Origin: an uncultured bacterium
Lineage (GTDB): Bacteria; Omnitrophota; Omnitrophia; Omnitrophales; Aquincolibacteriaceae
Direction of reading: 5' to 3'
Assembly: GCA_964562525.1 (NCBI GenBank)
Contig: CAZLTL010000002.1
Coordinates: forward strand, 82,468-146,467
Length of the DNA: 64,000 nt
Shown here: in pieces, positions 22,886 to 61,150 of the stretch
Layout of the letters: every line of letters begins with the position of its first letter
Position numbering within the stretch: position 1 is the first letter of the stretch
Notes under the pieces: generated by a model
The model's input: the letters and a program-made list of their open reading frames with translations, nothing else
Told to the model about the DNA's origin: nothing
The model's database searches: none
Translations under genes and position numbers: made by a program

Positions 22886-23526
22886 AGTACGGAGACCAGC
22901 GGCCGGAGGCCAGAGGGTTGTTAGTTTTAAGTTTAATTCTTTGTTTTTCTCTCGGCGCACCGGCCTCCGGCCTCCAGCCCGTGTTTGCCAATGAAGTTTT
23001 GAATTCGCAGGAAATAGCCATGCCGTCTTCCGGTGCCGCTGTCATGGTTCGCGAAAACTCCAAAACCGGCACGCCTTATATCGTGATCACGGATCCCAAA
23101 GCTCCTCGATCTGATTTGGCCTCGCTTGATTCCAACAAATATCGCCGACCCGATTACCGCATGCTCGAAAAAAACGTGACCGCGAAAGATGTCGGGTATG
23201 ACGGTCCGTATAGTTCCAAGAAGAAAATATATATTCTCGCCGCAAGTTTGGCGGTTGCCGGAGCTGGAGCGGCGATCGCGGCGCCTGCGATTGCGCCTGC
23301 CGCGGCCGCAACCGGAGCTGTGGGAAGTGCCGCAGGTCCTGCCGTTGCAGCTGTTGGCGCAGGATCGGCATTAGCCGTAGCGGCAAAAAAATATCAGGAT
23401 CATTTCGAAAACCTGCCCGACGATTACAGCCGTGAATCGGAATCAAAAATCATCGAGACGGAAACGGACTTTTATCAAATGTATGTATCAAAGGTCGATA
23501 GGCGACCTTTTCAAAATCAGAACTGA
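22882..23526 (+). CDS. Hypothetical secreted protein with an Ala/Gly-rich low-complexity segment
   Basis: Signal peptide; ..AASLAVAGAGAAIAAPAIAPAAAATGAVGSAAGPAVAAVGAGSALAVAA.. Confidence 0.45.
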   Translation: MKYGDQRPEARGLLVLSLILCFSLGAPASGLQPVFANEVLNSQEIAMPSSGAAVMVRENSKTGTPYIVITDPKAPRSDLASLDSNKYRRPDYRMLEKNVTAKDVGYDGPYSSKKKIYILAASLAVAGAGAAIAAPAIAPAAAATGAVGSAAGPAVAAVGAGSALAVAAKKYQDHFENLPDDYSRESESKIIETETDFYQMYVSKVDRRPFQNQN

Positions 23527-23625
23527 TAAATCAGAAATCAAAACCATAGCCCAAAGCCTTTTAGATATTTGTAAAATCTTGGAGCCTTTAAGTTATGGTT
23601 CTGATCTTTGATTTTTAAACTATGA
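23525..23625. repeat. Repeat family A (palindromic REP/MITE-like element, about 100 bp), copy A1
   Basis: Arms ..AAATCAGAAATCAAAACCATAG.. and ..CTTTAAGTTATGGTTCTGATCTTTGATTT.. are inverted repeats; shared with A2-A5. Confidence 0.7.
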
Positions 23626-23634
23626 GTTATCTTT

Positions 23635-24489
23635 GTGCCTGAACTTCCCGAAGTCGAAACCATCAAAAATGATTTAGTGCGCGCCGGGCTTTGCGCGCGG
23701 ACGGTCGCCACAGCGGATATTTTTTGGCACCGTACATTGGCGCGTCCTTCCGCTGTTGAATTTCAAAAGCAAATCAAAAGCATGAGAATTGAAAAGCTTT
23801 CCCGCCGCGGCAAGTATTTGATATTGGAGTTGATGTCTCGCGGGCCTCAGGGCTCCGGCCGCCGGCCTGCGTTTTTAATTATGCACTTGAGGATGAGCGG
23901 ACGCATCGATTTAAAAGAAGCCGGTTTTGTTCCTCGTACGCATGATCGCGCACGGCTTGTCTTGGATGACGGAAGCCAACTCGTATTTCATGATACGCGC
24001 AAATTTGGACGCTGGTATTTTGTGGATGATGCCGAAAAAATTGTCGGCAAGCTCGGCATCGAACCGCTCGATAAGAATTTTACGGTCGGGTGGCTGGCTG
24101 AAAAAATAAAAAGCAAAAGCCGTGCTTTAAAACCGCTTTTGCTTGATCAGTCTTTTGTCGCGGGAATCGGCAACATCTATGCCGACGAGGCGCTTTGGTA
24201 TGCGAAGCTGCATCCCGAAACCAATTCGGCCAAATTAAAGGCGGAAGAAATTAAAGCGTTGCACGCGGGAATTGTAAAAGCGATTGAGTTGGGCATTCGC
24301 AACGCAGGAACTTCCATGGGAGTCGGCAAGGCTAACTTTTATAGCGTGGGTGGGAAGCGCGGGGGTAATCAAGAAAAGCTGAAAGTGTTTCGGCGAACCG
24401 GCGAAAAATGTCCGCGGTGTCATGCTAAAATTGTGCGCATTGTGGTGGGGCAGCGAAGCACGCATCTTTGTCCGAAATGCCAAAAATAG
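23635..24489 (+). CDS. mutM: Formamidopyrimidine-DNA glycosylase
   Basis: N-terminal PELPEVE with catalytic Pro2/Glu3 (GTG start), H2TH region, C-terminal zinc finger CPRCHAKI..THLCPKCQ. Confidence 0.85.
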   Translation: MPELPEVETIKNDLVRAGLCARTVATADIFWHRTLARPSAVEFQKQIKSMRIEKLSRRGKYLILELMSRGPQGSGRRPAFLIMHLRMSGRIDLKEAGFVPRTHDRARLVLDDGSQLVFHDTRKFGRWYFVDDAEKIVGKLGIEPLDKNFTVGWLAEKIKSKSRALKPLLLDQSFVAGIGNIYADEALWYAKLHPETNSAKLKAEEIKALHAGIVKAIELGIRNAGTSMGVGKANFYSVGGKRGGNQEKLKVFRRTGEKCPRCHAKIVRIVVGQRSTHLCPKCQK

Positions 24490-24497
24490 ATCAAAAT

Positions 24498-24600
24498 GCA
24501 TAAATCAGAAAGCAGAGCTATAGATTAAAACCGTTCGGATTTTCGAAAATCTTTGAATTTTAAGTTATGGTTCTGATTTCTGATCTTTGAACTCTGATCT
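24498..24600. repeat. Repeat family A, copy A2 (3' of mutM)
   Basis: ..ATAAATCAGAAAGCAGAGCTATAGATTAAAACC...TTTTAAGTTATGGTTCTGATTTCTGATCTTTGA.. Confidence 0.7.
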
Positions 24601-24615
24601 AAAACAGGGGGGATA

Positions 24616-25340: not shown

Positions 25341-25447
25341 AAGCAGAGCAGAGTTCAAAGATCAGAAATCAAAACCACAGATCAAAGCTTTTGAGACGTT
25401 TGAAATCTTTGAGCTTTAAGTTATGGTTCTGATTTTTAAGTTTTAAA
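25341..25447. repeat. Repeat family A, copy A3 (3' of the ABM gene)
   Basis: ..CAAAGATCAGAAATCAAAACCACAGATCAAAG...CTTTAAGTTATGGTTCTGATTTTTAAG.. Confidence 0.7.
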
Positions 25448-25464
25448 TTATTAACTAGGATTTT

Positions 25465-27396
25465 ATGGCGCTTATTAGTTTGCAGGGCGTTTCGCTTGCG
25501 TTCGGCGGCCCAAAATTGTTCGATGAAATGACGCTTCAAATCGAACTTGGTGAGCGCGTCGCTTTGCTTGGACGTAACGGTACGGGAAAAACCACGCTCA
25601 TGCGCGTGATCGCGCGCGAAATTTCATTGAACGAAGGTTCGGTTGTTTATCAGAAGAACAGCCGCGTGGCGTATCTTCCGCAGGAAGTGCCGGTCGATCT
25701 CGAAGGCACGGTTTTTGAAGTAGTCATCTCCGGCATGGGCGACCAGGTGAAATTGATCCGTGATTACCATCATGTGGCGCATCTGCTGCAAACCGAATAC
25801 AGCGAACAGCTCATGAAACGGCTCGACACTTTGCAGTCCGAAATGGACCGCACCAATGGCTGGGAAATTAACCAGCAAGTGGAACAAGTTGTCGCGCAAG
25901 TTCGGCTCGATCCTGAAAGTGACTTTAAAACTTTATCCGGCGGACAAAAGCGACGCGCTCTTTTAGCCAAAGCGCTTGTTTTAAAACCCGATTGTTTGTT
26001 GCTCGACGAACCGACCAACCATTTGGATATTGAATCCATCGACTGGCTCGAAGCTTTTTTGAAAGAATTCAAAGGCACCATTATTTTCGTCACTCATGAC
26101 CGTATGTTTATGACGCGGCTCGCCACTAAAATTGTGGAGCTCGACCGAGGTAAACTTTTCAGCTGGTCTTGCGATTACCCGACTTTTCTTGAGCGTAAAC
26201 AAATGGCCCTTGATGCCGAAGCCGCCGAGGGCGCGCGCTTTGATAAAAAGCTGGCGCAAGAAGAAGTTTGGATTCGTCAGGGAATTAAAGCCCGCCGCAC
26301 CCGTAACGAAGGCCGCGTGCGCGAACTTGAAAAATTGCGTTTGCAGAAAAAAGCTCAACGCAAACAAATCGGCAAAGTCAAAATGCAGGCACAGGAAGCG
26401 GATGTTTCAGGGCAGGTGGTGACGAAGGCCGATCATATTTACCAGGCTTACGGCGATAAGAATCTGATCGAAAATTTTTCAACGCGCATTATGCGCGGCG
26501 ATAAAATCGGCATCATCGGCCCCAACGGCTGCGGAAAAACCACTTTGCTTAAAATCTTGCTCGGACAAATGCCTCCGCAAAAAGGCACGGTGCATTTGGG
26601 CACGAACTTGCAAGTGGCGTATTACGATCAGCTGCGCGAAGAGCTGGATGGAGAAAAAACCGTCATGCAAAACGTCGCCGATGAAGGCGACTTTGTGCAC
26701 ATCAACGGCAAGGCGCGTCACGCCATGGGCTATTTGATGGATTTTCTTTTTTCTCCCGAGCGCGCGCGCACTCCCGCGAAAGTTTTATCGGGCGGCGAAC
26801 GTAACCGTCTTTTTCTTGCGCGCCTTTTTACTAAGCCTTGCAATACTTTGGTGATGGACGAACCCACCAACGATCTCGACATTGAAACCTTAGAATTGCT
26901 CGAAGAACTTTTGATCGAATTTTCAGGTACGGTGATTGTCGTCAGCCATGACCGCGAATTTTTAAACAAAGTGGTTACTTCAACCATTGTGTTGGACGGT
27001 AAAGGCAAAATCGAAGAATACATCGGCGGCTATGATGATTGGGTGCGCCAGCACAACTCCAAAGCCGAAACGGTTCAGCAGCAAATCGAACACGAAGAAG
27101 AGGATGAGCCCCAGCCTAAGAAAAAAGAGCCTGAGCCTGAGAAAAAAACCGCAGTTAAAAAAATGACCATGGGGGAGAAGCTCGAGCTCGAAAAACTTCC
27201 CGCGCAGATCGATAAGCTGGAAACTGAGCAAAAAGAAATTTATCTGCGCATGGCCGACCCCATGTTTCGCCATGGTAAGGCGGAGGAGATTGCCCAAATC
27301 AAACAGCGCCTCAAAGACATCGCCGAAGAGCTTAAGACGGCTTATGCCCGCTGGGAAGTTTTGCTTGAGAAAGAAAAAGAATCTCCCAAAAAATAA
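25465..27396 (+). CDS. uup: ABC-F family ATPase (Uup/YheS-like, two ABC domains, no TMD)
   Basis: Two Walker A motifs (GRNGTGKTT; GPNGCGKTT), two LSGGQ/LSGGE signatures, a linker and a charged coiled-coil C-terminus. Confidence 0.85.
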   Translation: MALISLQGVSLAFGGPKLFDEMTLQIELGERVALLGRNGTGKTTLMRVIAREISLNEGSVVYQKNSRVAYLPQEVPVDLEGTVFEVVISGMGDQVKLIRDYHHVAHLLQTEYSEQLMKRLDTLQSEMDRTNGWEINQQVEQVVAQVRLDPESDFKTLSGGQKRRALLAKALVLKPDCLLLDEPTNHLDIESIDWLEAFLKEFKGTIIFVTHDRMFMTRLATKIVELDRGKLFSWSCDYPTFLERKQMALDAEAAEGARFDKKLAQEEVWIRQGIKARRTRNEGRVRELEKLRLQKKAQRKQIGKVKMQAQEADVSGQVVTKADHIYQAYGDKNLIENFSTRIMRGDKIGIIGPNGCGKTTLLKILLGQMPPQKGTVHLGTNLQVAYYDQLREELDGEKTVMQNVADEGDFVHINGKARHAMGYLMDFLFSPERARTPAKVLSGGERNRLFLARLFTKPCNTLVMDEPTNDLDIETLELLEELLIEFSGTVIVVSHDREFLNKVVTSTIVLDGKGKIEEYIGGYDDWVRQHNSKAETVQQQIEHEEEDEPQPKKKEPEPEKKTAVKKMTMGEKLELEKLPAQIDKLETEQKEIYLRMADPMFRHGKAEEIAQIKQRLKDIAEELKTAYARWEVLLEKEKESPKK

Positions 27397-27839: not shown

Positions 27840-28115
27840 ATGAAAAAATATTTGTTTGTAAGTACTGTCGTTGTTCTTGTTTTAATTTTTAGCGCTCCTG
27901 TTTTTGCTTATTCGGTTTCGGTTCAAGCCAAACTTCAAAATACGTGGGAACAAAAAGGTTCGCTTTGGGATGGAGCGGCGCTTCTGTTTTCGAATTTCAA
28001 AGCCGGCCAAAATAAAAATGCGGGCGTTGCTAAAGTGACGCGGCCGGTTGTGGTGCAGGAGCCGGAGTGGAGTCAGCAGTTGAATTCGATGCGTGCGTTT
28101 GCAACATCAGCTTAA
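27840..28115 (+). CDS. Small hypothetical secreted protein
   Basis: Signal peptide MKKYLFVSTVVVLVLIFSAPVFA; 91 aa; followed by a hairpin plus T-run inside repeat family D. Confidence 0.4.
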   Translation: MKKYLFVSTVVVLVLIFSAPVFAYSVSVQAKLQNTWEQKGSLWDGAALLFSNFKAGQNKNAGVAKVTRPVVVQEPEWSQQLNSMRAFATSA

Positions 28116-28119
28116 TTTG

Positions 28120-28200
28120 CTCAGTCGCCGCATGGCTTTTGTCCTCACCGCCGGACGGGCTAGCCGCTCCAAAGCCGCGGCTGGCTTCGGAAAGCCTTTT
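28120..28200. repeat. Repeat family D, copy D1
   Basis: CTCAGTCGCCGCATGGCTTTTGTCCTCACCGCCGGACGGGCTAGCCGCTCCAAAGCCGCGGCTGGCTTCGG; compare D2. Confidence 0.6.
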
Positions 28201-28202: not shown

Positions 28203-28213
28203 GCTACGGTATT

Positions 28214-28240
28214 TTTTGAACAAATGATTTTGTTCAAAAA
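28214..28240. repeat. Perfect 12-4-12 palindrome TTTTTGAACAAA-TGAT-TTTGTTCAAAAA
   Basis: Read directly; the arms resemble the family-B terminal inverted repeats (..GTTCAAAA..). Confidence 0.5.
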
Positions 28241-28329
28241 CACCTGTCGCTCAAGCGCCGATCTTTAAATAAAAGGGAATCGTTGATTTCCGCGATGCCG
28301 CAAAAAAGTGCTTTCCTGTATAAAGCAGA

Positions 28330-28402
28330 GGCGGTTGCCTTCGGCGTTTCCCGTCTTATTGCTTCCTCAGCTCGTGAATCTCGCTTCGGAAGCTGGCGCT
28401 TG
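28330..28402. repeat. Repeat family E, copy E1 (immediately upstream of arsR)
   Basis: ..TTGCCTTCGGCGTTTCCCGTCTTATTGCTTCCTCAGCTCGTGAATCTCGCTTCGG.. Confidence 0.65.
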
Positions 28403-28428
28403 ACTATATCTGCTTATGCAGATATAGT
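28403..28428. promoter_or_regulatory. Perfect palindrome ACTATATCTGC-TTAT-GCAGATATAGT abutting the arsR start; candidate ArsR operator
   Basis: 11-bp arms with a 4-bp spacer read directly; ArsR/SmtB repressors classically bind inverted repeats overlapping their own promoter. Confidence 0.5.
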
Positions 28429-28785
28429 TTGATTATGAAATTGAAAGACACGCAGGTTATTTTTGGGGCTTTGGCGGACGCGACGCGTTTCCGTATTTTG
28501 AATTTGCTCTCCGAAGGGGAGCTTTGCGTTTGCGACATCATGCAGGTTTTAAAAGCGCCGCAGTCGAAGATATCTCGGCATTTGTCTTATTTGCGCCGCG
28601 CGGGGCTTGTGGATGCGCGCAAAGAGGGCCTGTGGATGCATTACCGGCTCGCTAAGCCGAAGATCAAAGTTTTAAAGGCGGTGTTTCAGTCTTTCGGCTG
28701 CTGCCGAGAAGATTTTGCCGAGCTACAAAATGATTTGAATGAATTTCGTAAAAATAAAAACTGTCTAGTCTCTTGCTGTAAGTGA
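28429..28785 (+). CDS. arsR: ArsR/SmtB family metalloregulator
   Basis: wHTH with the canonical ..ELCVCDIMQVL.. metal site in helix alpha-3; C-terminus ends ..NCLVSCCK; a perfect palindrome abuts the start (TTG 28429 or ATG 28435). Confidence 0.8.
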   Translation: MIMKLKDTQVIFGALADATRFRILNLLSEGELCVCDIMQVLKAPQSKISRHLSYLRRAGLVDARKEGLWMHYRLAKPKIKVLKAVFQSFGCCREDFAELQNDLNEFRKNKNCLVSCCK

Positions 28786-28814
28786 TTTAGTTAAAATCAA
28801 AGGGGGTGAGAATC

Positions 28815-28850
28815 ATGGACGGTTGTTGCGGAAGCGGATGCTGCAAATAG
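28815..28850 (+). CDS. Candidate 11-aa cysteine-rich micro-ORF (MDGCCGSGCCK) between arsR and acr3
   Basis: SD AGGGGGTGAG lies 4 nt upstream of ATG 28815; four Cys in 11 residues; it ends in CCK like the ArsR C-terminus. Not in the ORF track because it is under 60 aa. Confidence 0.3.
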   Translation: MDGCCGSGCCK

Positions 28851-28927
28851 GCATTCCAATCACTCCCCACAAAGATGATGACGATCATCTTTGCCGGGAG
28901 TTTTTAAACATATGAAAAGTTGAATCG

Positions 28928-29989
28928 ATGCAAAAGCTTTCTTTTTTAGACCGGTATTTAACAGTTTGGATTTTTGCGGCCATGGCCGTGGGCGTGGCGC
29001 TTGGGTATTTCTTTCCCGGCGTTGAACGGGTTATTAATTCATTTCAAGTTGGCACGACGAATATTCCCATCGCGGCAGGACTCATTCTGATGATGTATCC
29101 ACCCCTTGCCAAGGTTCGCTATGAAGAACTGGGGGATGTTTTTAAGAATAAAAAAATTCTGATTCTAAGCCTCATCCAAAACTGGGTGATCGGTCCGGTG
29201 CTCATGTTTGTTTTGGCGGTTCTTTTTTTACGCGACCAGCCCGAATATATGGCCGGCCTTATTTTAATCGGCCTCGCGCGCTGTATTGCCATGGTGATTG
29301 TTTGGAATAAACTCGCCGAAGGCAATTCCGAATATGCCGCGGGGCTTGTGGCCTTCAACAGTGTGTTTCAGGTTTTATTTTTCAGCGCATACGCCTATTT
29401 CTTTATTTCATTTTTACCCAAGCTTTTCGGTATGGAAAGTTTCGCCGTAGCGGTTTCTATGCGCCAAATTGCCGAAAGTGTTTTTATTTATCTCGGCATT
29501 CCGTTTCTGGCGGGCATGATCACGCGATTCAGTTTGCTTAAAGCAAAAGGCGCCGCTTGGTATGAAAATCAATTTTTGCCCAAAATTAGCCCGCTAACTC
29601 TCGCGGCTTTGCTTTTCACCATTTTGATCATGTTCAGCCTCAAAGGAAATTACATCGTTCAAATCCCGCTGGATGTCGTCAAAATCACGCTCCCGCTTCT
29701 GATTTATTTTGTCGTCATGTTTCTTTTCAGTTTTTGGATGTCAAAAATAGCCGGCGCTGATTATTCCAAATCCGTCACGCTTTCATTCACCGCTGCGAGC
29801 AATAACTTTGAGCTCGCCATCGCGGTTGCCATCGCTGTTTTCGGCGTGAATTCCGGGCAAGCGTTTACCGCCGTGATCGGGCCGCTTGTCGAAGTGCCCG
29901 TCATGATTGGCTTGGTGCATGTTGCATTTTGGATTCGCGGAAAATATTTTAAAAATATCGAGATCAAACAAACCGAGGGTTGCTGCTGA
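28928..29989 (+). CDS. acr3: Arsenite efflux permease, ACR3 family
   Basis: 10-TM BART-superfamily profile; N-terminal ..[16 protein letters not shown].. and ..[17 protein letters not shown].. are typical of ACR3. Confidence 0.85.
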
Positions 29990-29990
29990 T

Positions 29991-30410
29991 ATGAAAAAAA
30001 GTGTTTTAATTCTCTGTACGGGCAATTCATGCCGCTCGCAAATGGCAGAGGGCATTTTGCGGCATTTCGGTTCCGATAAGTTCAATGTTTTAAGCGCGGG
30101 CACAAAGCCGTCAGTTGTGAACAAGACTGCAATTAAAGTGATGCAGGAAATCGGCATCGATATCTCAGAGCATCGATCGAAACACATTGATGAGTTTTTA
30201 GGTCAAAAAATAGATTTTATTATTTCAGTTTGCGACAATGCCAAAGAATCTTGCCCGATCTTTCCGGGCGGAACGACTCGTCTGCATTGGCCGTTTCCGG
30301 ATCCGCCTCACGACAAAGATATTACCGAAGCTGTTTTGAATGAGTTTCGGAAAGTGCGTGATTTGATTCTTGTTCGGTTTAAGGCTTTGGGGGAGACGGG
30401 GAAGTTTTAG
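29991..30410 (+). CDS. arsC: Arsenate reductase (thioredoxin-coupled LMW-PTP type)
   Basis: ..VLILCTGNSCRSQMAEG.. P-loop C-x5-R; downstream Cys and Asp residues; ATG 29991 lies 1 nt after the acr3 stop (the track ORF starts earlier at 29907). Confidence 0.85.
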   Translation: MKKSVLILCTGNSCRSQMAEGILRHFGSDKFNVLSAGTKPSVVNKTAIKVMQEIGIDISEHRSKHIDEFLGQKIDFIISVCDNAKESCPIFPGGTTRLHWPFPDPPHDKDITEAVLNEFRKVRDLILVRFKALGETGKF

Positions 30411-30487
30411 ATTTCTTGTCGCTACTGCTCTTGGCTTGTCATCCTCGCGAATGCGGGGATCCAGTGATTGACTCTCATGATGGTTCC

Positions 30488-30565
30488 TCGACTTGAAACT
30501 CTTCGTCTGCTCAGACAGTCGCGTCCGTTGGCGCGAAACTCGCATTCGAAGAGTTTCAATTCGAG
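30488..30565. repeat. Repeat family C, diverged partial copy C5 (reverse orientation, 3' of arsC)
   Basis: Reverse complement ..GAGTTTCGCGCCAACGGACGCGACTGTCTGAGCAGACG.. parallels the C core GAGTTCTGCGCCGAYAGGACGCAGCTGTYTGAGC. Confidence 0.4.
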
Positions 30566-30611
30566 TCTCTTCCGCAAAAGGGGCGGTGGGCTGTCAAAGG
30601 AGAAAGCCTTG

Positions 30612-30682
30612 GCTTTGCCTTCGGCGTTTCCCGTCATATTTGCCCCCTCGGCTAGTGAATCTCGCCTTTGGGAGCAGTTTTT
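30612..30682. repeat. Repeat family E, copy E2 (downstream of arsC, same orientation as E1)
   Basis: ..TTTGCCTTCGGCGTTTCCCGTCATATTTGCCCCCTCGGCTAGTGAATCTCGCCTTTGG.. is about 80% identical to E1. Confidence 0.65.
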
Positions 30683-32969: not shown

Positions 32970-33128
32970 AAATTTTGTTTTTTGTTCAGCGATTCAATTC
33001 CGCCGCGAGTTCTGAGCGAAGCATCAGCTGTGTGAGCGCCGGAATGAATCGCGGAGCCCGCGCCGGCTCCGGAGGCGCAAGGCCATCCGCCGGTGAGGAT
33101 AAAAAGCCTATCGGCACCTGAGATAATC
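32970..33128. repeat. Repeat family C (about 150 bp), copy C1, sitting in the 3' end of gene 32479..32955
   Basis: ..TCCGCCGCGAGTTCTGAGCG...CAGCTGTGTGAGCGCCGGAATGAATCGCGGAGCCCGCGCCGGCTCCGGAGGCGCAAGG...GAGATAA.. is about 85% identical to C2 over ~140 bp. Confidence 0.7.
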
Positions 33129-37554: not shown

Positions 37555-37899
37555 ATGAAAAAATTATTGTCCGTTTTTGTTTTTATTCTTTTTCTTGCGC
37601 CGCAATCCGGATTTTCATCCGCGGCATTTAATGAATTTCCACCCAGCCAATGGACCAAGGGTATGAGCTATGGCGAAAAAACGGTGGGCAAGGTTGGTTT
37701 TGGTTTGGTTAATATTTTGCTCGGCTGGACTGCGCTTGGAACCGAATACTTTCAAGATCCTGAAACCAATGTGGGCGTTTATTTTCTGCGCTCAATCGCT
37801 CGCACCGTGACAAATACAGTCGGCGGCGCTTTGCATGTGGTGACTTTTCCGGCGCCGTTTGATATTCCGCTCCCCGGCGGCGGCACCGCCTTCGAATAA
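37555..37899 (+). CDS. Small secreted protein, paralogous family member
   Basis: Signal peptide; ..YGEKTVGKVGFGLVNILLGW...HVVTFPAPF aligns with 18593(-) and 16607. Confidence 0.5.
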   Translation: MKKLLSVFVFILFLAPQSGFSSAAFNEFPPSQWTKGMSYGEKTVGKVGFGLVNILLGWTALGTEYFQDPETNVGVYFLRSIARTVTNTVGGALHVVTFPAPFDIPLPGGGTAFE

Positions 37900-37904
37900 T
37901 AAGT

Positions 37905-38035
37905 CGTTGAAAAGGCTTCGTCTGCGGCGTTAAATTCGTCACTCCCTTGTGCGGTGTAGGTTTCACTACACCTCCGCGGTCGTTCGAATTTGCCTAGCAT
38001 CCGAAACCTTTTGAACGACTTTTTGCAGACAAGAG
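37905..38035. repeat. Repeat family B (MITE-like, about 110 bp, terminal inverted repeats GTCGTTCAAAAG / CTTTTGAACGAC), copy B1
   Basis: Conserved core ..CGTCTGCGGCG...CTTGTGCGGYGTAGGTTTCACTACRCCTCCGCGG...GCCTAGCATCC..; TIRs read at both ends. Confidence 0.7.
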
Positions 38036-38059
38036 TCTTCGCTGAACTTTGCTGCCGAT

Positions 38060-38250: not shown

Positions 38251-38254
38251 GGCG

Positions 38255-40273: not shown

Positions 40274-40279
40274 CTTTCT

Positions 40280-50654: not shown

Positions 50655-51821
50655 TTGGGTATAATGTGCGCCATGTCACAGCTAGAAACCAACGAAAAAG
50701 CGGAATTTGCGAAAGGCCTTGAAGGTATTGTTGCCGGAGAGACGGCGCTTTCGCTTGTTGACGGCAAGAATAGCAAACTCTACTACCGCGGCATTTCAGT
50801 CGAAGAATTTGTCGGGCACTCCTGTTTTGAAGAAGTTGTTTATCTGCTTTGGAATTTACGCTTCCCGAAAAAATCCGAACTCGAAGAATTCAAAAAAGGG
50901 TTAGCTGAAAATCGTTTTATTTCTCAGGCTTTTATTGATTGGCTTGCTTTGCTTCCTAAAACCGCGCATCCGATGTCGGTTTTACGCACGGCCGTTTCCG
51001 AAATGGGCTGCTTTGATAAAGATGCCGACAAGATGGACGCTGTTTCTTTAAAGCGCATGGCGCATGATCTCACCGCCAAAATTCCGACGATTCTTGCCGC
51101 GTATCATCGCGTGCGCGAAGGCAAAAAGCCGATTCTTCCGGATGTGTCGCTTTCGCACGCCGCGAATTTCCTTTATATGCTGAACGGCGAAAAGCCTTCG
51201 CCTGAAATGGAAAAGGCCCTCGACACTTATTTGATTCTGCTCGCGGACCATGGTTTTAACGCGTCTACTTTTTCGGCGCGTGTTACGGTCGCGACACTTT
51301 CGGATATGTACTCCGGAGTCACCGCCGCGATCGGCGCCTTGAAAGGCGACTTGCATGGCTCCGCGGTTCAAAATGTGATGCAGATGTTTCTTGAAATCGG
51401 CGAACCGGAAAAGGCCGCGCAATATGTGAATGATGCGTTTGCCGCTAAGAAAAAAATTATGGGTTTTGGACACCGCATTTACAAAGAAGTGGATCCGCGA
51501 GCGACCGCTTTTCGCGGCGTTGCGGAAGCTTTGGCAACAAGCCAAGGCGGCGAAAAGAAATGGGTTCAGATGGCGGCCAATATTGAAAAAGCCGTGCACG
51601 CGCATAAAAAGATTCCCTGCAATGTGGATTTCTTTTCATCGTATGTGCTTTATACCGTGGGTTTTCCGGTAGATTTTTTTACGACGATTTTTGCCGCAAG
51701 CCGGGTTTCCGGCTGGACGGCGCATGTGATCGAGCAGTTGGGTAATAATCGTTTGATTCGCCCTGAGGCGATATATACCGGCCCAATGAACGAGCACTAC
51801 ATTCCAATCGACGCTCGTTGA
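50655..51821 (+). CDS. gltA: Citrate synthase
   Basis: ..GFGHRIYKEVDPRA.. citrate-synthase signature; ..HGSAVQNVM..; catalytic His and Asp pattern. The start could be the third Met (50673). Confidence 0.85.
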   Translation: MGIMCAMSQLETNEKAEFAKGLEGIVAGETALSLVDGKNSKLYYRGISVEEFVGHSCFEEVVYLLWNLRFPKKSELEEFKKGLAENRFISQAFIDWLALLPKTAHPMSVLRTAVSEMGCFDKDADKMDAVSLKRMAHDLTAKIPTILAAYHRVREGKKPILPDVSLSHAANFLYMLNGEKPSPEMEKALDTYLILLADHGFNASTFSARVTVATLSDMYSGVTAAIGALKGDLHGSAVQNVMQMFLEIGEPEKAAQYVNDAFAAKKKIMGFGHRIYKEVDPRATAFRGVAEALATSQGGEKKWVQMAANIEKAVHAHKKIPCNVDFFSSYVLYTVGFPVDFFTTIFAASRVSGWTAHVIEQLGNNRLIRPEAIYTGPMNEHYIPIDAR

Positions 51822-51825
51822 AAAA

Positions 51826-51935
51826 GTCTGTCTGCGGCATTCCAAACTCGCTTCCTTGTGCGGCGTAGGTTTCTACTACGCCTCCGCGGGCGCTCGTTTG
51901 AGCTTTGCATCCAGAGCTTTTTGAACGAGCAAAAA
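51826..51935. repeat. Repeat family B, copy B2 (3' of gltA)
   Basis: ..GTCTGCGGCATTCCAAACTCGCTTCCTTGTGCGGCGTAGGTTTCTACTACGCCTCCGCGG...CTTTTTGAACGAGC.. Confidence 0.7.
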
Positions 51936-51979
51936 GTAGCGTTTAACAAACATAGAATTATGATAAGAAAGTTTGTGCG

Positions 51980-53181: not shown

Positions 53182-54060
53182 ATGAGTATCCTCGTAAATA
53201 AAAATACAAAAGTTTTGGTTCAGGGTATTACCGGTACGCATGGCGCATTTCACGCTGAAAAAATGGTTGAGTACGGAACAAAGATTGTCGGCGGTGTGAC
53301 CCCCGGCAAAGGCGGACAAAAAGCCGTTTGCAATGTTCCGGTTTTTAATTCCGTTAAAGAAGCCCGCGAACAAACCGGCGCCAACGCGTCGATTATTTAT
53401 GTGCCTGCGAAATTCGCAATTGCCGCGGTTCAGGAAGCGGTTGATGCCGGCATTGAACTTGTTGTTTGTATCACTGAAGGTATTCCCGCTCTCGATATGG
53501 CGAAAATTAAGCCGACTCTCGCTGGTAAGAAAACTCGTTTGATCGGGCCTAATTGCCCGGGACTTATTACGCCCGAAGAATGTAAGCTCGGCATTATGCC
53601 CGGGTACATTCATAAAAAAGGCCCTGTCGGTGTGGTTTCGCGCAGCGGAACTTTGACTTATGAAGCGGTTTGGCAGTTGACGGAATTGGGTATCGGCCAA
53701 TCGACTTGCGTTGGTATCGGCGGCGACCCGATTATCGGAACGAATTTCGTGGATGTACTCGATCTTTTCAACAAAGATCCTGAAACCGAAGCCATTGTCA
53801 TGATCGGTGAAATTGGCGGCAGCGCGGAAGAAGAAGCCGCGGAGTTTATCAAGAAGTACGTTAAGAAACCGGTCGTCAGCTTTATTGCGGGTGCGACGGC
53901 TCCGAAGGGAAAACGCATGGGCCATGCCGGCGCGATTATTTCCGGCGGTTCCGGCAAAGCGGAAGATAAAGTTGCTTGCCTCAAGGCGGCAGGGGTTTTT
54001 GTGGCTCCGTCACCGGCATTGTTGGGCGTCACAGTTCGCGACGCTCTAAAAAGAGCATGA
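53182..54060 (+). CDS. sucD: Succinyl-CoA synthetase alpha subunit
   Basis: ..[14 protein letters not shown].., ..[10 protein letters not shown].., phosphohistidine loop ..SRSGTLTYE.. / ..[10 protein letters not shown].. Confidence 0.9.
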
Positions 54061-55412
54061 GCGAAAACCTCGATCACGCCTACGACGAGTACCTTAAATC
54101 TAAATCTGATCAGGCAATGCAGTCCATTGCCGCGTTTCAGAAAAAAATTGCCGCTTCCGATTTAAAGTACGGAAAAAATTCCATTCCGACTTTTTTCAAA
54201 CCTATTTTTCTCGCACCGCGCCAAACACATCTCGTGAAGCGCGTTACGTCCACCCTGCAGCAAGTCGTGAACACCGCAATCCGTATTTACTTTGAAGACA
54301 ATCGCTTCGCGCGCTATTTTCGTCTTACGCCTGAAATCGAAAATCTTGTGAAAATTGATCCCGGTTATTCGTCGGCGGTGGTATTTGCGCGCTTTGACGG
54401 TATTTTGGAGGGCGGACGGCTTAAGTTCGCTGAGTTTAACTGTGATTCGCCTGTAGGCGCGGCGTATTCCACTTTGCTATCCGATCAATTGCTTTCCGAC
54501 CCGCTCTTTAAAGCTTTTGCCGACGAACACGCGGTGGAGCCTTTCCGGCCCGCGGATGATATTTTAAATGCTTTGTTATCTGTGTATGAAGAGTTTGGCG
54601 GATTCGAAACACCGACTATCGCCATCATGGACTGGAAAAATGTTCGTACGCGCCCCGAGTTTGTGCTTTTACAAAAACGTTTTGAAGAGCGCGGCTACCG
54701 CACGCTGATTGTGGACCCGCGCGAGCTGACTTTTAAAGGCGGCAAGCTTTACTCGAAAGAAACCCGCGTCCATTTAATTTACCGCCGCGCTCTTGTCGAG
54801 GAGCTCGCGATTCAAAATGATGAAATTCAGGATTTTTTAAATGCTTACCGCGAGCGCGCCGTTTGCGTTGTGAACCCTTTGCGTTCCGCGATTGGCAGTC
54901 ACAAAGGCATGCTTTCGATTTTGACGCACCCTTATTTCGATTCTTTTTTCACGCAATCTGAAAACCAAATCAAGCATGAGCATTTGCCGTGGACGCGCCA
55001 GGTCGCGGACGCGGAAGATTTTTTCGGCCATCAAAAAATGTATTTAGTCGATTTTCTCAAAGATGAAAAAGATTCTCTGGTGGTGAAGCCCAGCCGCAAA
55101 GAGCCGCACCGCGAAATTCGCGTCGGCGCCGATACGTTTGACGATATTTGGAATGAAACCATTTCTTGGGCGATGAATGAAAATGCCGTCATGCAGGAAT
55201 TTGTTTCAGTGCCCACAACAACGGTCCCCAAAGTTTCCGACGGTAAAATTGACTGGGATTATAAAAAATATAATTTCAGCGCCCTCGCGGTAGCCGGAAA
55301 AATGTGCGGCGCATTCAGCCGTCTGAGCGATACGAATGTGATAAGAGTTGCTGACCAGGGCGGACTAATACCCGCATTCTGGTCGGACCAAACCGCCGAC
55401 GCCTTTCAGTAA
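54057..55412 (+). CDS. ATP-grasp superfamily protein (glutathionylspermidine-synthase-like / circularly permuted ATP-grasp type)
   Basis: ..[16 protein letters not shown].. resembles the E(Y/F)N(A/C)D(T/S)P motif of GspS-like and circularly permuted ATP-grasp proteins; its start ATGA overlaps the sucD stop. The track ORF begins at 53976 in another phase of sucD. Confidence 0.4.
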
Positions 55413-55427
55413 CTCGGCGATTGAAAA

Positions 55428-55550
55428 CAGCTCGTCTGCTTCGTTGCAAACTCGCAACTTTCGGTCAATGTGCGTTTTCAGCACACCTCCCTCACTTGCT
55501 CGTTTACGCCTAGCATCCAAGCTGTTTTGAATCACCTTTCATCTTAGGTG
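55428..55550. repeat. Repeat family B, diverged copy B4 (3' of the ATP-grasp gene)
   Basis: ..TTGAAAACAGCTCGTCTGC...CGCCTAGCATCCAAGCTGTTTTGAA.. has TIRs and the shared CGTCTGC and GCCTAGCATCC blocks, but the centre differs. Confidence 0.55.
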
Positions 55551-55654
55551 GGCTCATTTTGAATTACTGAACCAAACGTCTCGCATCTAAAGCCTTCTCC
55601 TTAGATTTTTAATATTGCGGTTCCTTTATTCATAATGGAATCCCGCTGGCGCTT

Positions 55655-55815
55655 TGTTTTTTATTAATTTCAGCATTCAAAGTCCGCCGCGAGTTCTGCG
55701 CCGATAGGACGCAGCTGTTTGAGCGCCGGACTTGAATGCGGAGCCTGCGCCGGCTCCGGAGGCGCAAGCCTGTCCGGCGATGAGGACACAAAGCCCATCG
55801 GCGTTTGAGATAAAG
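55655..55815. repeat. Repeat family C, copy C2
   Basis: ..GTCCGCCGCGAGTTCTGCGCCGATAGGACGCAGCTGTTTGAGCGCCGGACTTGAATGCGGAGCCTGCGCCGGCTCCGGAGGCGCAAGCC...GAGATAA.. Confidence 0.7.
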
Positions 55816-57759: not shown

Positions 57760-57784
57760 TTTTCTCTCTCCAGAAGGCTGTTGA

Positions 57785-57892
57785 AAAAGGTCGTTCGCAT
57801 CGTTACAAACCGCGCTTCCTTGTGCGGCGTAGGTTTCACTACGCCTCCGCGGTCGCTTGTTTGATGCCTTGCGTCCGTCCCTTTTTGAACAG
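57785..57892. repeat. Repeat family B, copy B3 (between pgsA and csaA)
   Basis: ..TTGAAAAAGGTCGTTCGC...CTTCCTTGTGCGGCGTAGGTTTCACTACGCCTCCGCGGTCG...CTTTTTGAACAGCC.. Confidence 0.7.
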
Positions 57893-58031
57893 CCTATATA
57901 ATTCTCAGATTAAATGAAATGATGACTTCGATCGGCAAGTATTGTATTTTCTCTTCCGTTGAGATTCAACAAGTGAAAAAAGACTTTTTACGGCTGCGGT
58001 TCGCGTAGCTCAGAGCAAAGGATAAAGACAG

Positions 58032-58364: not shown

Positions 58365-58455
58365 AGCTCAGTCGCCGCATGGCTATTTCGCCTCACCGCC
58401 GGCTGGGCGCTTGTGGTCGTAGACCAAGCCGCTCCGAAGCCGCGGCGGGCTTCGC
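58362..58455. repeat. Repeat family D, copy D2 (has an internal about 20 bp insert relative to D1)
   Basis: CTCAGTCGCCGCATGGCTATTTCGCCTCACCGCCGGCTGGGCGCTTGTGGTCGTAGACCAAGCCGCTCCGAAGCCGCGGCGGGCTTCG. Confidence 0.6.
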
Positions 58456-58525
58456 ATTCAAGTCCGGCGCTCAGACAGCTGCGTCCTGTCGGCGCAGAAC
58501 TCGCGGCGGACTATAAATGCTGAGA
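58455..58525. repeat. Repeat family C, partial copy C3 (reverse orientation)
   Basis: Reverse complement reads ..TCCGCCGCGAGTTCTGCGCCGACAGGACGCAGCTGTCTGAGCGCCGGACTTGAA.. Confidence 0.6.
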
Positions 58526-59372: not shown

Positions 59373-59569
59373 TATTTCAGCATAAAACGCATCGCGTTTT
59401 TCCGCTTTATTGCCCCCACCCCTTGAGAGCTGATTTGAACCCCTCTTTTTCAGCATCGCTTGTTAGGCTGAAAAAGGATAACCAGGAAAGCCGCAGATAC
59501 ACTTGCCCAGGCTTTCACCGTTTCTAGCCTCCACCCAACTTTGGCGAGGAAAGCCCGGGAAAACAGTCC

Positions 59570-59625
59570 GGAGATAGGAGTTCTGCGCCGCAGGACGCAG
59601 TTGTTTGACTAGCGCCGGATCTGTT
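59570..59625. repeat. Repeat family C, partial copy C4
   Basis: ..GAGTTCTGCGCCGCAGGACGCAGTTGTTTGACTAGCGCCGGATCTG.. Confidence 0.5.
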
Positions 59626-59705
59626 TTTCGGGCATCTATCCCATTTTGTTAATTGAACAAAACTGTGCTTCTCTTTTAAAAGAGCTTTGCTATAATCCTC
59701 GACCT

Positions 59706-61025
59706 ATGAACACAGCCACACAGACAGATCAGCTCGATGTAAAACCTTTTCGCGCCTACCGGTACAACCCGGCACGCGTCGATTTCAAAAAAGTCATCGC
59801 ACCGCCGTATGACGTCATTTCACCGGCAAAGCAAGATCATCTCTATGGTTTGTCGCCGTTCAACGTGGTTCGCCTTATTCTGAATAAAAAAGAACCCGCA
59901 GATAACGATACTTTCAACACTTACTCCCGCGCCGCCGAAGCTTTCAACACTTGGATTCAAGAGCAAGTTTTCATGCGCGATGACAATCCTTGTTTTTATG
60001 TTTACCGTCAGTCTTATGTTGCGCCGGACGGCAAGCGCCGCGAACGCACCGCACTGCTCGGCAAAATCAAAGTTGAGCCTTTTGAAAAAGGTCTCATCAT
60101 TCCGCATGAAATCACTTTGAAAGGCCCGCGCGCTGACCGCATGAATTTGATCAAAAAAATTCACACTAATCTTTCGCCTGTATTCGGCCTTTATAAAGAT
60201 CAGGGCGGCGAAACGCATAAGCTCATTTCAAGCGCCGCGCAAGGCAAGCCTGTTTTTGACCTCATTGATGAAGACGGCATCGGTCAAACCATGTGGGTTG
60301 TTACCGACCACAAACTTTGCCAGCAAATTTCCGAAAGCTTCAAAGATAAAAAAGTTTATATCGCCGATGGTCATCATCGTTATGAAACTTCACTTGAATA
60401 CGCTCAGCTCAAGCGCGCCGAAGAAAAAACACCGCCGAAAAGCGCTCAGCCTTACGATTACACTTTGATGGCTTTCGTTTCTTTTAGTGATCCCGGATTC
60501 ATGGTGATGCCGACGCATCGCCTCATGATCAAGCTTACGCTTCCGCAAGATCAAATGCTGGCTCAGCTCAAAACACAATTTAATGTTGAAGAAATTGCCG
60601 CAGAGAAAATCGAATCCACTTTAGACAATGGCCCCGATCTTCCGGTTCGTCTCGGCCTCGTTTTCAAAGATAAGTCTTATTTGCTTACGCTTAAAGATCC
60701 GCAAGCCGCGAAAAAAGTTCTCGGCTGGGACAAGCCCGACGTTTGTTTGGATTTGAATGTGAACATTCTTGGCTATCTTGTTTTCAGCAAACTTCTTAAC
60801 TTTCCCGCGGATAAATGGGAAGGTAACTTGAAGTTTGAGCATGAAGCCAAGCCTTCAATCGAAGCCGTTAAAAAAGGCGAAGTTGAAGCCGCATTCATTC
60901 TTAAAGCCGCTCCGATTGCGATGCTTGAGAAGCTGGGTGCGGTTCAGGAGAGAATGCCGCAGAAGTCGACGTACTTCTACCCTAAGTTAGCCAGCGGCAT
61001 TGTCTTCCACCACCACAGCGCCTAA
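59706..61025 (+). CDS. DUF1015 family protein
   Basis: N-terminus ..VKPFRAYRYNP.. and ~440 aa length match DUF1015; the track ORF begins at 59646. Confidence 0.55.
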   Translation: MNTATQTDQLDVKPFRAYRYNPARVDFKKVIAPPYDVISPAKQDHLYGLSPFNVVRLILNKKEPADNDTFNTYSRAAEAFNTWIQEQVFMRDDNPCFYVYRQSYVAPDGKRRERTALLGKIKVEPFEKGLIIPHEITLKGPRADRMNLIKKIHTNLSPVFGLYKDQGGETHKLISSAAQGKPVFDLIDEDGIGQTMWVVTDHKLCQQISESFKDKKVYIADGHHRYETSLEYAQLKRAEEKTPPKSAQPYDYTLMAFVSFSDPGFMVMPTHRLMIKLTLPQDQMLAQLKTQFNVEEIAAEKIESTLDNGPDLPVRLGLVFKDKSYLLTLKDPQAAKKVLGWDKPDVCLDLNVNILGYLVFSKLLNFPADKWEGNLKFEHEAKPSIEAVKKGEVEAAFILKAAPIAMLEKLGAVQERMPQKSTYFYPKLASGIVFHHHSA

Positions 61026-61029
61026 AATT

Positions 61030-61150
61030 CGCTGAAAATTGCCGTCTGCGGCGTTGCGAATCTCGCAACTCTCGTCAACGTATTAGCACATACGCCTCCT
61101 CAGTTACTCAATTCGCGCCTAGCATCCAATCAATTTTGATCGAATTTTTC
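61030..61150. repeat. Repeat family B, diverged copy B5 (3' of the DUF1015 gene, at the left edge of the terminal AT-rich island)
   Basis: ..GCCGTCTGCGGCGTTGCGAATCTCGC...ACGCCTCCTCAG...CGCCTAGCATCCAATCAATTTTGATCGAATTTTTCAAACG.. Confidence 0.55.

Follow-up and report, generated by a model that had tools for sequence, protein, structure and literature searches.

The analysed window is a stretch of 64,000 nucleotides from an Omnitrophota genome, and the spacers between its genes hold several families of hairpin-forming repeats of 80-160 bases each. The best named matches of its citrate synthase are proteins of Omnitrophica/Omnitrophota. Such families had been reported in an initial annotation made from the letters alone, and BLASTN self-comparison together with a repeat search recovered all of them where they had been placed, with E-values of 1e-5 to 1e-30. 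When every ORF of 120 aa or more is taken as a gene, the region from 23.5 to 61.3 kb has 17 spacers of 60 nt or longer, of which 14 hold an element, against one of 11 before this region. The statement that intergenic space is built from them was too strong, as by this gene definition they account for about 22% of the spacer bases of the whole window, a value to be read as a lower bound. The elements and related features are the following.

16951-17081, + strand: B6, diverged copy outside the range of the initial annotation; R1 covariance model 76.6 bits, E 7e-16
23510-23638, + strand: A1; R2 116.4 bits on + versus 78 on -; fold z -4.3
24484-24610, + strand: A2; R2 128.6 bits; occupies the spacer after fpg
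25341-25466, + strand: A3; R2 115.9 bits; occupies the spacer between an ABM-domain gene and an ABC-F gene
28119-28189, - strand: D1, partial C element, 3' half alone; BLAST match to 58366-58454
28213-28240, no strand: perfect 12+12 palindrome, TTTTTGAACAAA-TGAT-TTTGTTCAAAAA; not in family B
28335-28393, + strand: E1, upstream of arsR
30485-30680, + strand: C5+E2 composite, with the C5 hairpin at 30485-30567, a G-rich block CCGCAAAAGGGGCGGTGGGC...GGAGAAA, and E2 at 30615-30675
32984-33126, + strand: C1, full, with C hairpin, second hairpin and tail
37894-38026, + strand: B1; R1 130.6 bits; between convergent genes
38020-38150, no strand: D3 of the initial annotation; a block of about 20 nt (GGTCTACGACCACAAGCGC) in common with a D2-specific insert, nothing more
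38144-38252, + strand: A5, partial or decayed; R2 27 bits, E 0.007
40277-40403, + strand: A4; R2 119.3 bits; spacer between isocitrate dehydrogenase and malate dehydrogenase
51805-51936, + strand: B2; R1 125.7 bits; spacer between citrate synthase and sucC
55408-55542, + strand: B4; R1 86.1 bits; diverged, variant apical hairpin
55667-55813, + strand: C2, full; adjoins B4
57768-57900, + strand: B3; R1 135.3 bits; between divergent genes
58366-58525, - strand: D2+C3 of the initial annotation; a single full-length C element
59500-59632, - strand: C4, with the C hairpin at 59555-59632, then a G-rich block CGCCAAAGTTGGGTGGAGGC...GGTGAAA
61019-61151, + strand: B5; R1 93 bits; diverged, variant apical hairpin

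The four full copies and one partial copy proposed for family A were recovered with the R2 covariance model, the partial one (38144-38252) only weakly; by BLAST, positions 38200-38249 of this copy match 40351-40400 at 80%. A1 is an AU-rich hairpin of about 115 nt that occupies the entire spacer from the ORF at 22882-23526 to fpg, and the outer stem of A2 takes in the UAG stop codon of fpg. Of the composite described as B1+D3+A5, B1 was recovered, A5 is a weak partial copy, and D3 has just the block of about 20 nt in common with the insert of D2.

For family C, the two full and three partial copies in both orientations were confirmed by BLASTN self-comparison, C1 matching 55653-55813 at 81% (E 5e-30). 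The number of independent families is nevertheless below the five originally counted, because D corresponds to the 3' half of C in reverse complement and, in other genomes, E travels with the C hairpin. The D2+C3 pair thus aligns as one full-length C element on the minus strand. D1 begins 3 nt past the stop of a small ORF (27840-28115), and C4 is antisense to its flanking genes. E1 and E2 are 85% identical over 61 nt (E 6e-10 by BLAST). The order of C hairpin, G-rich block and E seen in C5 and E2 recurs in other Omnitrophota genomes (L004, two sites in L005, and L013), and the pair is thus one composite unit. It folds with -41.1 kcal/mol (z -6.4). The C hairpin has one architecture in the 12 copies folded, consisting of an asymmetric loop GAGUUY / YUGUNUGAG with a covarying apical stem, an invariant centre and outer stems of 13-25 bp that are private to each copy.

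The palindrome had been taken for an empty pair of family B terminal inverted repeats, an interpretation that is not supported, as its halves are reversed relative to B and the G-G mismatch of B is missing. It has the T/A runs outside and GAAC/GTTC inside, the opposite of B, and the sole nearby match of the R1 model (28222-28282, - strand) covers just its right half at 13.7 bits and E 1.3.

No match to Rfam release 15 at the gathering score was found across the whole window, and scans of A4, B1, B4+C2, C5+E2 and D1+E1 at a permissive E-value returned sub-threshold noise alone, such as plant miRNA precursors for the AU-rich A hairpin or CRISPR-DR47 at 22.9 bits versus a gathering score of 39. 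The literature searched contains no description of these repeats. No transposase, RAYT or integrase domain was detected among about 50 window ORFs scanned, and neither the window nor the other loci examined showed a RAYT gene.

Structure and orientation of family B

All five copies of family B listed initially, two of them diverged, were recovered, and a sixth lies outside that range at 16951-17081. The terminal repeat originally given needs correction, since the 5' terminus of B1 is GTCGTTGAAAAG, not GTCGTTCAAAAG, and the differing position is a conserved G-G mismatch. The R1 model is specific, with no matches in 205 kb of unrelated metagenome contigs. According to RNAalifold the B consensus is a rod-shaped hairpin of 115 nt with 35 pairs; B1 itself folds with -51.8 kcal/mol (z -6.5). 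The apical 40 nt or so are almost invariant among copies and include a central module in which CCUCC comes after a 7-bp hairpin and which also has conserved internal loops. The outer stems (7-14 bp) have a sequence private to each copy with complementarity kept, and the termini are the least conserved part of the element, as in C.

Among 27 aligned copies, 92.8% of the cells are paired, versus 36-49% with slid partners, and both sides are altered in 29 of the 35 pairs. The covariation score of 0.474 was reached by none of 500 shuffles, and slid partners give at most 0.113. These compensatory changes back one consensus structure, and by sequence comparison B is a candidate new RNA motif. Two U-G pairs are conserved; the remaining pairs include 19 G-U cells versus 28 A-C cells, and the sense strand is thus not favoured by this wobble test: a DNA palindrome or a function on both strands fits equally well as RNA.

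The orientation of family B is nearly absolute. All six window copies are on the + strand, where they score 76-135 bits, versus 13-17 bits for the reverse strand. With co-oriented ORFs of 120 codons or more counted, 15 of 26 copies had a stop codon at the start of the outer stem or within the element; in 12 of them the end of the stop lies between -3 and +1 nt relative to the first paired base, and in three the stop is the element's own conserved UGA. Two further cases are at contig ends, and the mirrored arrangement occurs once. In the window, the outer stem of B1 begins 2 nt past the stop of the ORF at 37555-37899, B4 begins 3 nt past that of the ORF at 53976-55412, and B5 1 nt past that of the DUF1015 gene (59646-61025), while the conserved UGA of B6 is the stop codon of a 119-aa ORF (16607-16966). 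Citrate synthase takes its final two codons and its UGA stop from B2, the protein ending in IPIDAR before the stop, versus IPIDKR or IPIEKR in relatives. Another copy begins at the CCA end of a tRNA-Ser gene. Three copies are antisense to both adjoining genes (L144, L147 and L006), and two lie between divergent genes (L011, and B3 between a CDP-alcohol phosphatidyltransferase gene on the - strand and a tRNA-binding protein gene on the + strand), where a 3'-end role is impossible. By itself, adjacency to stop codons is weak evidence of function, because in compact operons with spacers of 0-10 nt every insertion that is tolerated has to fall beside a stop.

Flanking direct repeats of at least 4 nt were found in none of 26 B copies, where shuffled partners give 1.3, and filled and empty sites are too diverged for exact boundaries to be compared. 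The initial annotation had overlooked the strict polarity, the registration with stop codons and the purifying selection with compensatory changes.

Distribution among relatives and selection

The expectation that the elements are repeated beyond the window was borne out in other Omnitrophota genomes. The B core occurs in four Omnitrophota MAGs and two further relatives, thus in at least six other genomes or assemblies, and the C hairpin in three of those four MAGs, one further relative and two metagenome contigs. The elements are gained and lost, since B and C elements are missing at orthologous spacers of relatives. In relatives with 85-86% identical citrate synthase the site of B2 is a spacer of 9-24 nt; B2 is missing at the orthologous spacer of L139, L140, L145, L146 and L148, and at the junction of citrate synthase and sucC an element is missing in eight relatives' contigs and present in three lineages. 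The relative with 86% identical citrate synthase is also without B4+C2 and B3, and B2, B4+C2 and B3 are all missing from the orthologous spacers of the syntenic contig L139. In relative L143 the spacer that holds A4 in the window measures 3 nt. B2, B4+C2, B3 and A4 are therefore polymorphic insertions among related genomes.

At fourfold-degenerate sites the window and L139 are 31-41% identical, that is, saturated. An orthologous minus-strand C copy (58366-58525 in the window, 14954-15020 in L139) retains about 90% identity over a 40-nt core. Because synonymous sites are saturated yet the element cores are intact, sequence comparison indicates that the elements of at least two families are kept by purifying selection once in place.

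Interpretation and alternatives

We consider it somewhat probable (about 0.55) that these are REP/ERIC-like structured elements that are co-transcribed with the upstream gene and act as RNA hairpins at its 3' end. Both their transcription and processing and their function as 3'-end hairpins we infer from sequence; transcription with the upstream gene is suggested by the strict polarity of B and by an outer stem that begins at the stop codon. In the proposed scheme, three or four families of non-autonomous, interspersed hairpin elements have spread into the spacers of a housekeeping region of a Candidatus Omnitrophota chromosome. They turn up at new spacers over evolutionary time and then persist under purifying selection. 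Within the mRNA of the upstream gene they would form a 3' untranslated or intercistronic segment, and the RNA rods would define or protect the 3' end of that transcript, acting as an exonuclease barrier or as an RNase III-type site of double-strand processing, with the invariant apical module as a candidate binding site of a trans-acting protein. The elements do not seem to spread by classical cut-and-paste transposition via terminal inverted repeats.

It is possible, although we hold it only tentatively, that the repeats are selfish at the DNA level and have no host function, being MITE-like or derived from single-stranded DNA transposons. The core would then be kept because active master copies need it for mobilisation, the stems would remain paired through a required hairpin intermediate or through mismatch correction between the palindrome arms, and polarity and stop adjacency would merely reflect the insertions that are tolerated. 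Such a view accommodates the presence and absence of elements among relatives, the roughly equal G-U and A-C mismatches, which are expected from transitions in either arm of a DNA palindrome, the ancestral spacers of just 0-24 nt, which force insertion beside stop codons, and the few decayed B copies (L016 3542-3653, L010 2244-2377). In addition, the reverse complement of the B core contains GGAGG with GUG 5 nt later, and a possibly harmful effect of antisense copies could explain the polarity. However, pairwise identities among B copies are 54-83%, without clustering by genome, and thus give no sign of recent bursts. Although synonymous sites are saturated over the age of the copies, nearly all of them have an intact core and paired stems; if selection did not act on every copy where it sits, decay would be expected. 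Conserved termini and target-site duplications are absent, and no transposase was found in the window.

That B, and perhaps A, are specialised intrinsic terminators or attenuators seems unlikely, although A/T runs (GAAAAAG ... CUUUUUGA) bracket the large inner hairpin of B in every copy, B1 sits between convergent genes, and the canonical terminators elsewhere in the window (18414-18446 and 18544-18575) share the layout of A run, stem and T run. An intrinsic terminator is a G+C-rich uninterrupted stem followed by a U run, whereas the U run of B pairs with the upstream A run within a longer stem that is interrupted by large loops; the hairpin beside the U run has 1-2 pairs before it opens into a large internal loop. 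As modelled, its base has more irregularities than a strong intrinsic terminator would allow, and a terminator scan of the window reports mere fragments of B. Moreover, the gene clusters that hold B2 and A4 are tightly coupled in relatives, B3 and the L011 copy are in divergent promoter regions, and the invariant apex of 40 nt would be left without a reason. For the unit of C hairpin, G-rich block and E, we regard as quite improbable a free-standing small RNA gene or a riboswitch-like 5'-UTR regulator instead of a repeat. The block order is conserved across four genomes, in three cases the unit is in sense orientation upstream of a gene (the 30822 gene of the window, L005 and L004), and E1 is upstream of arsR; but in three other cases it is antisense to its neighbours, the downstream genes are mutually unrelated, the hairpin module also occurs in the different composite of C1-C3, with three copies of the hairpin within 2.5 kb in L005, and the six sequences establish a consensus structure for the hairpin alone.

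Comparison with known repeat systems

The designation of the repeats as REP-like is apt, as they are interspersed, hairpin-forming and modular, of the REP/ERIC kind. ERIC elements or IRUs (about 127 bp), found in Enterobacteriaceae and Vibrionaceae, are imperfect palindromes of about 120 bp with the centre best conserved; they reside in transcribed spacers, at different sites in related species, and orientation-dependent effects at the RNA level have been reported. To our knowledge, no dedicated transposase of ERIC has been described. Family B has a similar imperfect palindrome with a conserved centre, an intergenic position and different sites in related species, but its sequence is unrelated and it belongs to another phylum, the resemblance being one of kind, not of sequence. 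Unlike ERIC, it also combines a near-absolute polarity and registration with stop codons within 3 nt with outer stems private to each copy.

Correia (NEMIS), RUP, BOX and bcr1-type MITEs are elements of 100-160 bp that form long hairpins and mosaics and share the transcripts of adjoining genes; RNase III cleaves the RNA of Correia elements. However, in these MITEs the terminal inverted repeats are conserved and the target site is duplicated (TA for Correia), and B and C have neither feature; with variable termini, no target-site duplications and no transposase seen among the window ORFs scanned, the name MITE, also used initially, does not apply to the repeats in the strict sense.

We find it hardly credible that B copies are integron attC-type sites for site-specific recombination. 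Both conserve structure over sequence, as imperfect palindromes (about 115 bp in B) with conserved asymmetries immediately 3' of a co-oriented ORF, and L010 has a gene-B-gene-B-B series. However, attC sites are conserved at the ends and variable in the centre, form cassette arrays and need the IntI integrase, none of which holds for B: its ends are variable and its centre conserved, there are no RYYYAAC/GTTRRRY boxes, the copies are 2-21 kb apart among housekeeping genes, and no integrase was found in the window.

By definition, a REP is a palindrome of 20-40 bp whose terminal tag, GTAG or CGTC, is unpaired (PMC3733652). REPs are extragenic, mostly downstream of ORFs and less than 20 bp from the upstream ORF ends, for the most part where the flanking genes are unidirectional or convergent; they can supply stop codons and do not duplicate the target site, and an action as RNA has been proposed for them (PMC3733652). 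REP, BIME and REPIN elements are tagged by GTAG or CGTC, mobilised by RAYT and often inverted dimers, whereas B is a single rod of 115 nt, with GTAG among the paired bases of its apical stem and CGTC within an internal loop, and its two arms are not copies of one REP. As with REPs, 15-17 of 26 B copies abut a stop codon.

Interspersed repeats of the window and their kind

All repeats reported in the initial annotation were recovered in the same places by BLASTN self-comparison and a repeat search, with E-values from 1e-5 to 1e-30. It divided them into at least five families (A to E), but there are fewer than five, D being part of C and E being tied to the C hairpin. By alignment, D is the reverse complement of the 3' half of full-length C copies. 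Thus the pair described as adjoining elements D2 and C3 is one whole minus-strand C element, and D1 is half of one; the supposed family member D3 has only a 20-nt block in common with D2. Three other Omnitrophota genomes have loci in which a conserved G-rich block (CGCAAAAGUGGGGNGGAGGC ... GGAGAAA) comes after the C hairpin and precedes an E-like block (UUUCCCGUCAUAU), an order that matches the window composite C5+E2 and, in part, C4.

Elements of the window named in the text
16951-17081, + strand: B6, family B
37894-38026, + strand: B1, family B
51805-51936, + strand: B2, family B
55408-55542, + strand: B4, family B
57768-57900, + strand: B3, family B
61019-61151, + strand: B5, family B
40277-40403: A4, family A
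30485-30567: C5, family C
55667-55813: C2, family C
59500-59632: C4, family C
28119-28189: D1, half of a C element

The density of repeats is very uneven, positions 1-23000 being poor and 23500-61300 rich. At 23.5-61.3 kb, 14 of 17 spacers measuring 60 nt or more contain an element, versus one of 11 upstream of that region, and elements cover at least 22% of the spacer bases in the window overall. Neither base composition nor GC skew changes from one part to the other, and the window has no tRNA genes. Its genes are of the housekeeping type (fpg, an ABC-F protein, the ars operon, RF3, isocitrate and malate dehydrogenases, aconitase, citrate synthase, succinyl-CoA ligase, and others), and no transposase, integrase, or RAYT domains were found among them. 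The best named homologues of the citrate synthase come from Candidatus Omnitrophica/Omnitrophota, and the family B core is present in four Omnitrophota MAGs, which places the window on an Omnitrophota chromosome. In the region 3858-4694, an RNase H-like (RVT_3) ORF (3858-4337) precedes a 118-aa ORF whose match to the TauE/SafE exporter family is confined to the C-terminal half of that family; this second ORF may be a truncated gene or have a wrongly set start.

The proposed MITE/REP-like nature was borne out on the REP/ERIC side. A strict MITE is rejected by the unconserved termini, by the lack of any target-site duplication found at 26 B copies, and by the lack of any transposase seen in the window. 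The perfect palindrome at 28213-28240, once taken for an empty pair of B terminal inverted repeats, is not an empty B site, since its halves stand in the opposite order. We conclude that the elements are bacterial interspersed structured repeats of the REP/ERIC-like kind, for which no earlier description in the phylum was found in Rfam or the papers searched. Omnitrophota are an uncultivated phylum known almost solely from metagenomes; the literature searched held nothing relevant on their repeats, and neither Rfam nor the papers searched describe their non-coding sequence. Rfam models gave no match in the window at gathering score and nothing credible in permissive mode. Both the B core and the C core were absent from viral contigs, and a distant BLAST search of B1 against plasmids gave no match. 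As possible additions to RNA family libraries, the elements offer two or three candidate structured-RNA families strongly supported by covariation.

Structure and placement of family B

The alignment of 19 B copies, five from the window and 14 from MAG loci, folds into a consensus rod with 35 pairs (RNAalifold) and served to derive a covariance model, R1. With R1, six B copies were detected in the window, all on the + strand and including a new one at 16951-17081; extra copies were found in the loci, and none in 205 kb of unrelated metagenome contigs. The structure is conserved with compensatory changes: among 27 copies, standard pairing occurs in 92.8% of cells, compared with 36-49% when partners are slid by 1-3 columns, and two-sided changes are found at 29 of the 35 pairs. 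The covariation score of 0.474 was reached by none of 500 shuffles, slid partners giving at most 0.113. Almost no variation is seen in the apex of about 40 nt (CUUCCUUGUGCGGCGUAGGUUUCACUACGCCUCCGCGGGCG) or in two internal loops, and a G-G mismatch within UUGAAAAAG / CUUUUUGAA is conserved. The sequence of helices 1 and 4 differs in nearly every copy, and the outer stem, well paired throughout, is private to each copy. Polarity is clear, since window copies score 76-135 bits on their own strand versus just 13-17 bits on the reverse strand.

B is also in register with stop codons. Of 26 copies, 15 adjoin the end of a same-orientation ORF of at least 120 codons: for 12 copies the stop of that ORF ends at -3 to +1 nt relative to the first paired base, and for three it is the element's own conserved UGA. 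Two more stop-abutting cases are cut by contig ends, and the mirrored arrangement was seen in one case. Three copies have an antisense orientation with respect to both adjacent genes, and two are situated between divergent genes. Upstream of B lie mutually unrelated housekeeping genes, among them, to judge by N-terminal sequence, apparent genes for enolase, acetolactate synthase, and MnmE, together with PurH, aconitase, and citrate synthase. At 3147-3361 of one locus outside the window (L016), a B copy begins precisely where a tRNA-Ser(GGA) gene ends with CCA, its outer stem pairing with the last bases of that gene, and a second, decayed B-like copy lies downstream at 3542-3653. Placement beside ORF ends is a point of likeness to REPs, which lie at most 20 bp from upstream ORF ends and sometimes supply the stop codon; in the definition of Di Nocera et al. 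(PMC3733652), however, REP denotes a unit of 20-40 bp whose terminal tag is unpaired, unlike B.

Insertion into the loops of pre-existing terminators would account for the private outer stems. It was rejected, since the A/T runs lie inside the private stem and not outside it; many outer stems are, moreover, AT-only with no U run after them. Derivation of the outer stem from an inverted target flank fails as well: the 5' arm of B2 (GCTCGTTGA) differs from the native coding sequence (AAGAGATAA) in the relative L144, and internal helix 4 is as variable as the outer stem. Only the outermost 2-4 pairs may be adapted to native flanks, namely AGC in B2 and, in L016, the tRNA's GCCA end. Coding by the reverse strand of the core, as a small ORF (GGAGG, 5 nt, GUG), was also rejected; its frame is broken by one-base changes in loop length, and its variation follows pair covariation and is not codon-like.

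Several minor observations concern individual copies. Two B copies stand tail to tail (+ then -) with a 25-nt gap at 5715-6007 of an outside locus (L006), between an acetolactate synthase gene and the next gene; this is the sole inverted pair seen. The apex of B4 (55462-55499, minus strand) matched the Rfam family CRISPR-DR47 below threshold (22.9 bits, gathering score 39, E 0.07), which we regard as chance, there being no repeat array. Small ORFs of 114-119 aa lie directly 5' of B at 37555-37899 and 16607-16966 in the window and at 2520-2879 (minus) of outside locus L010. The three proteins have a signal-peptide-like N-terminal segment and a common hydrophobic ...V(T/F)(F/M)P... motif near the C-terminus; none of them matches Pfam, and BLASTP at E 1e-3 does not connect them.

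Gain, retention, and possible function

Syntenic contigs of relatives were obtained via citrate synthase homologues. In L139, a relative with an 86% identical citrate synthase, the citrate synthase-sucC spacer has 9 nt where the window has 158 nt (B2), the occupied spacer that follows has 58 nt instead of 447 nt (B4 and C2), and the divergent-gene spacer has 100 nt instead of 272 nt (B3). R1 detected no B in the 77 kb of five such syntenic contigs. The isocitrate-malate dehydrogenase spacer, which holds A4 in the window, is 3 nt in a relative. The citrate synthase-sucC junction carries B on the + strand in the window (51822-51979), on the minus strand in two relatives at 93% and 79% identity (L144, 2956-3106, and L147, 1427-1575), and not at all in the eight other relatives' contigs. 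With three lineages occupied, on both strands, the junction is either an insertion hot spot or the site of an old copy that was inverted and repeatedly lost. B2 replaces the last codons of citrate synthase (IPIDAR* versus IPIDKR*/IPIEKR*) and supplies its stop codon, so the elements can rewrite the ends of essential genes. They also lengthen spacers inside operons and probably break short-read assemblies.

Fourfold-degenerate identity to the window is 58.5% for L144 and 31-41%, i.e., saturated, for L139. Despite this saturation, a C copy 3' of the tRNA-binding protein gene is also at the orthologous place in L139 and keeps about 90% identity over the 40-nt core hairpin. B copies are 54-83% identical pairwise, are not grouped by genome, and include no near-identical pair, which indicates saturation of their free positions but retention of core and pairing; clear decay was seen in just two copies. 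Such retention is what purifying selection on each resident copy predicts, and it is hard to reconcile with neutral decay of dead transposon copies. The elements provide a natural case of interspersed repeats that are gained and lost yet kept by purifying selection, and so bear on the long-standing debate over the selfish or functional nature of REP/ERIC-type repeats.

We assign a probability of about 0.55 to a reading in which the elements would be transcribed together with the upstream gene and work as RNA rods at its 3' end or between cistrons, the invariant apex being a putative protein binding site. Parallels are offered by REP, ERIC, and Correia elements and by RNase III sites in polycistronic mRNAs of phages. 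Two points weaken this reading: outside two conserved U-G pairs, B cells contain 19 G-U versus 28 A-C, a count not favouring the sense strand, and ancestral spacers are so small that this alone would bring insertions up against stop codons. A purely selfish element acting at the DNA level is in our estimate about half as probable. Terminator, sRNA or riboswitch, and recombination-site readings share the small remainder. B resembles neither of the two good canonical terminators of the window, and an attC-like site is rejected because B has variable ends, a conserved centre, and no core boxes. Those terminators (18414-18446 and 18544-18575) are near-perfect 14-bp G+C-rich hairpins with A and T runs at their sides, located between the convergent genes 17845-18393 (+) and 18593-19210 (-); the second is bidirectional, and no other convincing canonical intrinsic terminator lies in the scanned 16-56 kb.

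A bolder proposal, which we consider improbable, is that B represents a new cis-acting class of 3'-UTR RNA coupled to translation termination. The base of the rod would lie in the mRNA channel of the ribosome at the stop codon, and the outer stem would be melted in each round of translation. The apex, a hairpin followed by the anti-Shine-Dalgarno-like CCUCC, would serve as the binding site for a trans factor or for a Shine-Dalgarno sequence, thereby deciding what becomes of the transcript or how the following cistron is translated. Genomic spread of the module would have resembled that of a mobile element, with retention by the host. We take this apex to be loosely reminiscent of helix 45 and the 3' tail of 16S rRNA.

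Families A and C and the ars operon

Family A, an AU-rich rod of about 115 nt, is represented by four full window copies and a single copy from a MAG locus. Scores are 116-129 bits for the + strand versus 68-82 for the minus strand, and each window copy occupies a whole same-strand intergenic spacer, starting within about 15 nt of the stop codon. Folding of 12 C hairpins, five from the window, five from MAG loci, and two from metagenome contigs, gave one architecture in all 12.

Parts of the C hairpin
Outer stem: 13-25 bp, private to each copy
Clamp: 2-3 bp, G-C changed to A-U in one copy
Asymmetric loop: GAGUUY / YUGUNUGAG, conserved
Apical stem: covarying, usually with a bulged A

The pattern GCGAGTTYN{8,30}CTGTNTRAG, used for C in metagenomes, was too degenerate: nearly all of its 120 loci are chance matches, and only two (L045 and L126) are C-hairpin-like. 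C composites are sense to their neighbours in three cases and antisense in three. One Omnitrophota MAG contig (L005) has three C hairpins inside 2.5 kb (256-348, 659-751, and 2412-2507), two of which start about 8 nt past the upstream gene's stop, on the transcribed strand.

Finally, the two E copies (28335-28393 and 30615-30675) are direct repeats flanking the ars operon (28429-30410), which encodes ArsR, an ACR3-type SBF transporter, and a low-molecular-weight (LMW)-phosphatase-type ArsC. Thus the operon possibly came in, or was rearranged, between two copies of the composite element. The best match to a sigma-70-like promoter in the scanned region (TTGACT, 17 nt, TATAGT; 28400-28428) overlaps an inverted repeat, TATATCTGC-TTAT-GCAGATATA, immediately 5' of the arsR start, which looks like a candidate ArsR operator.
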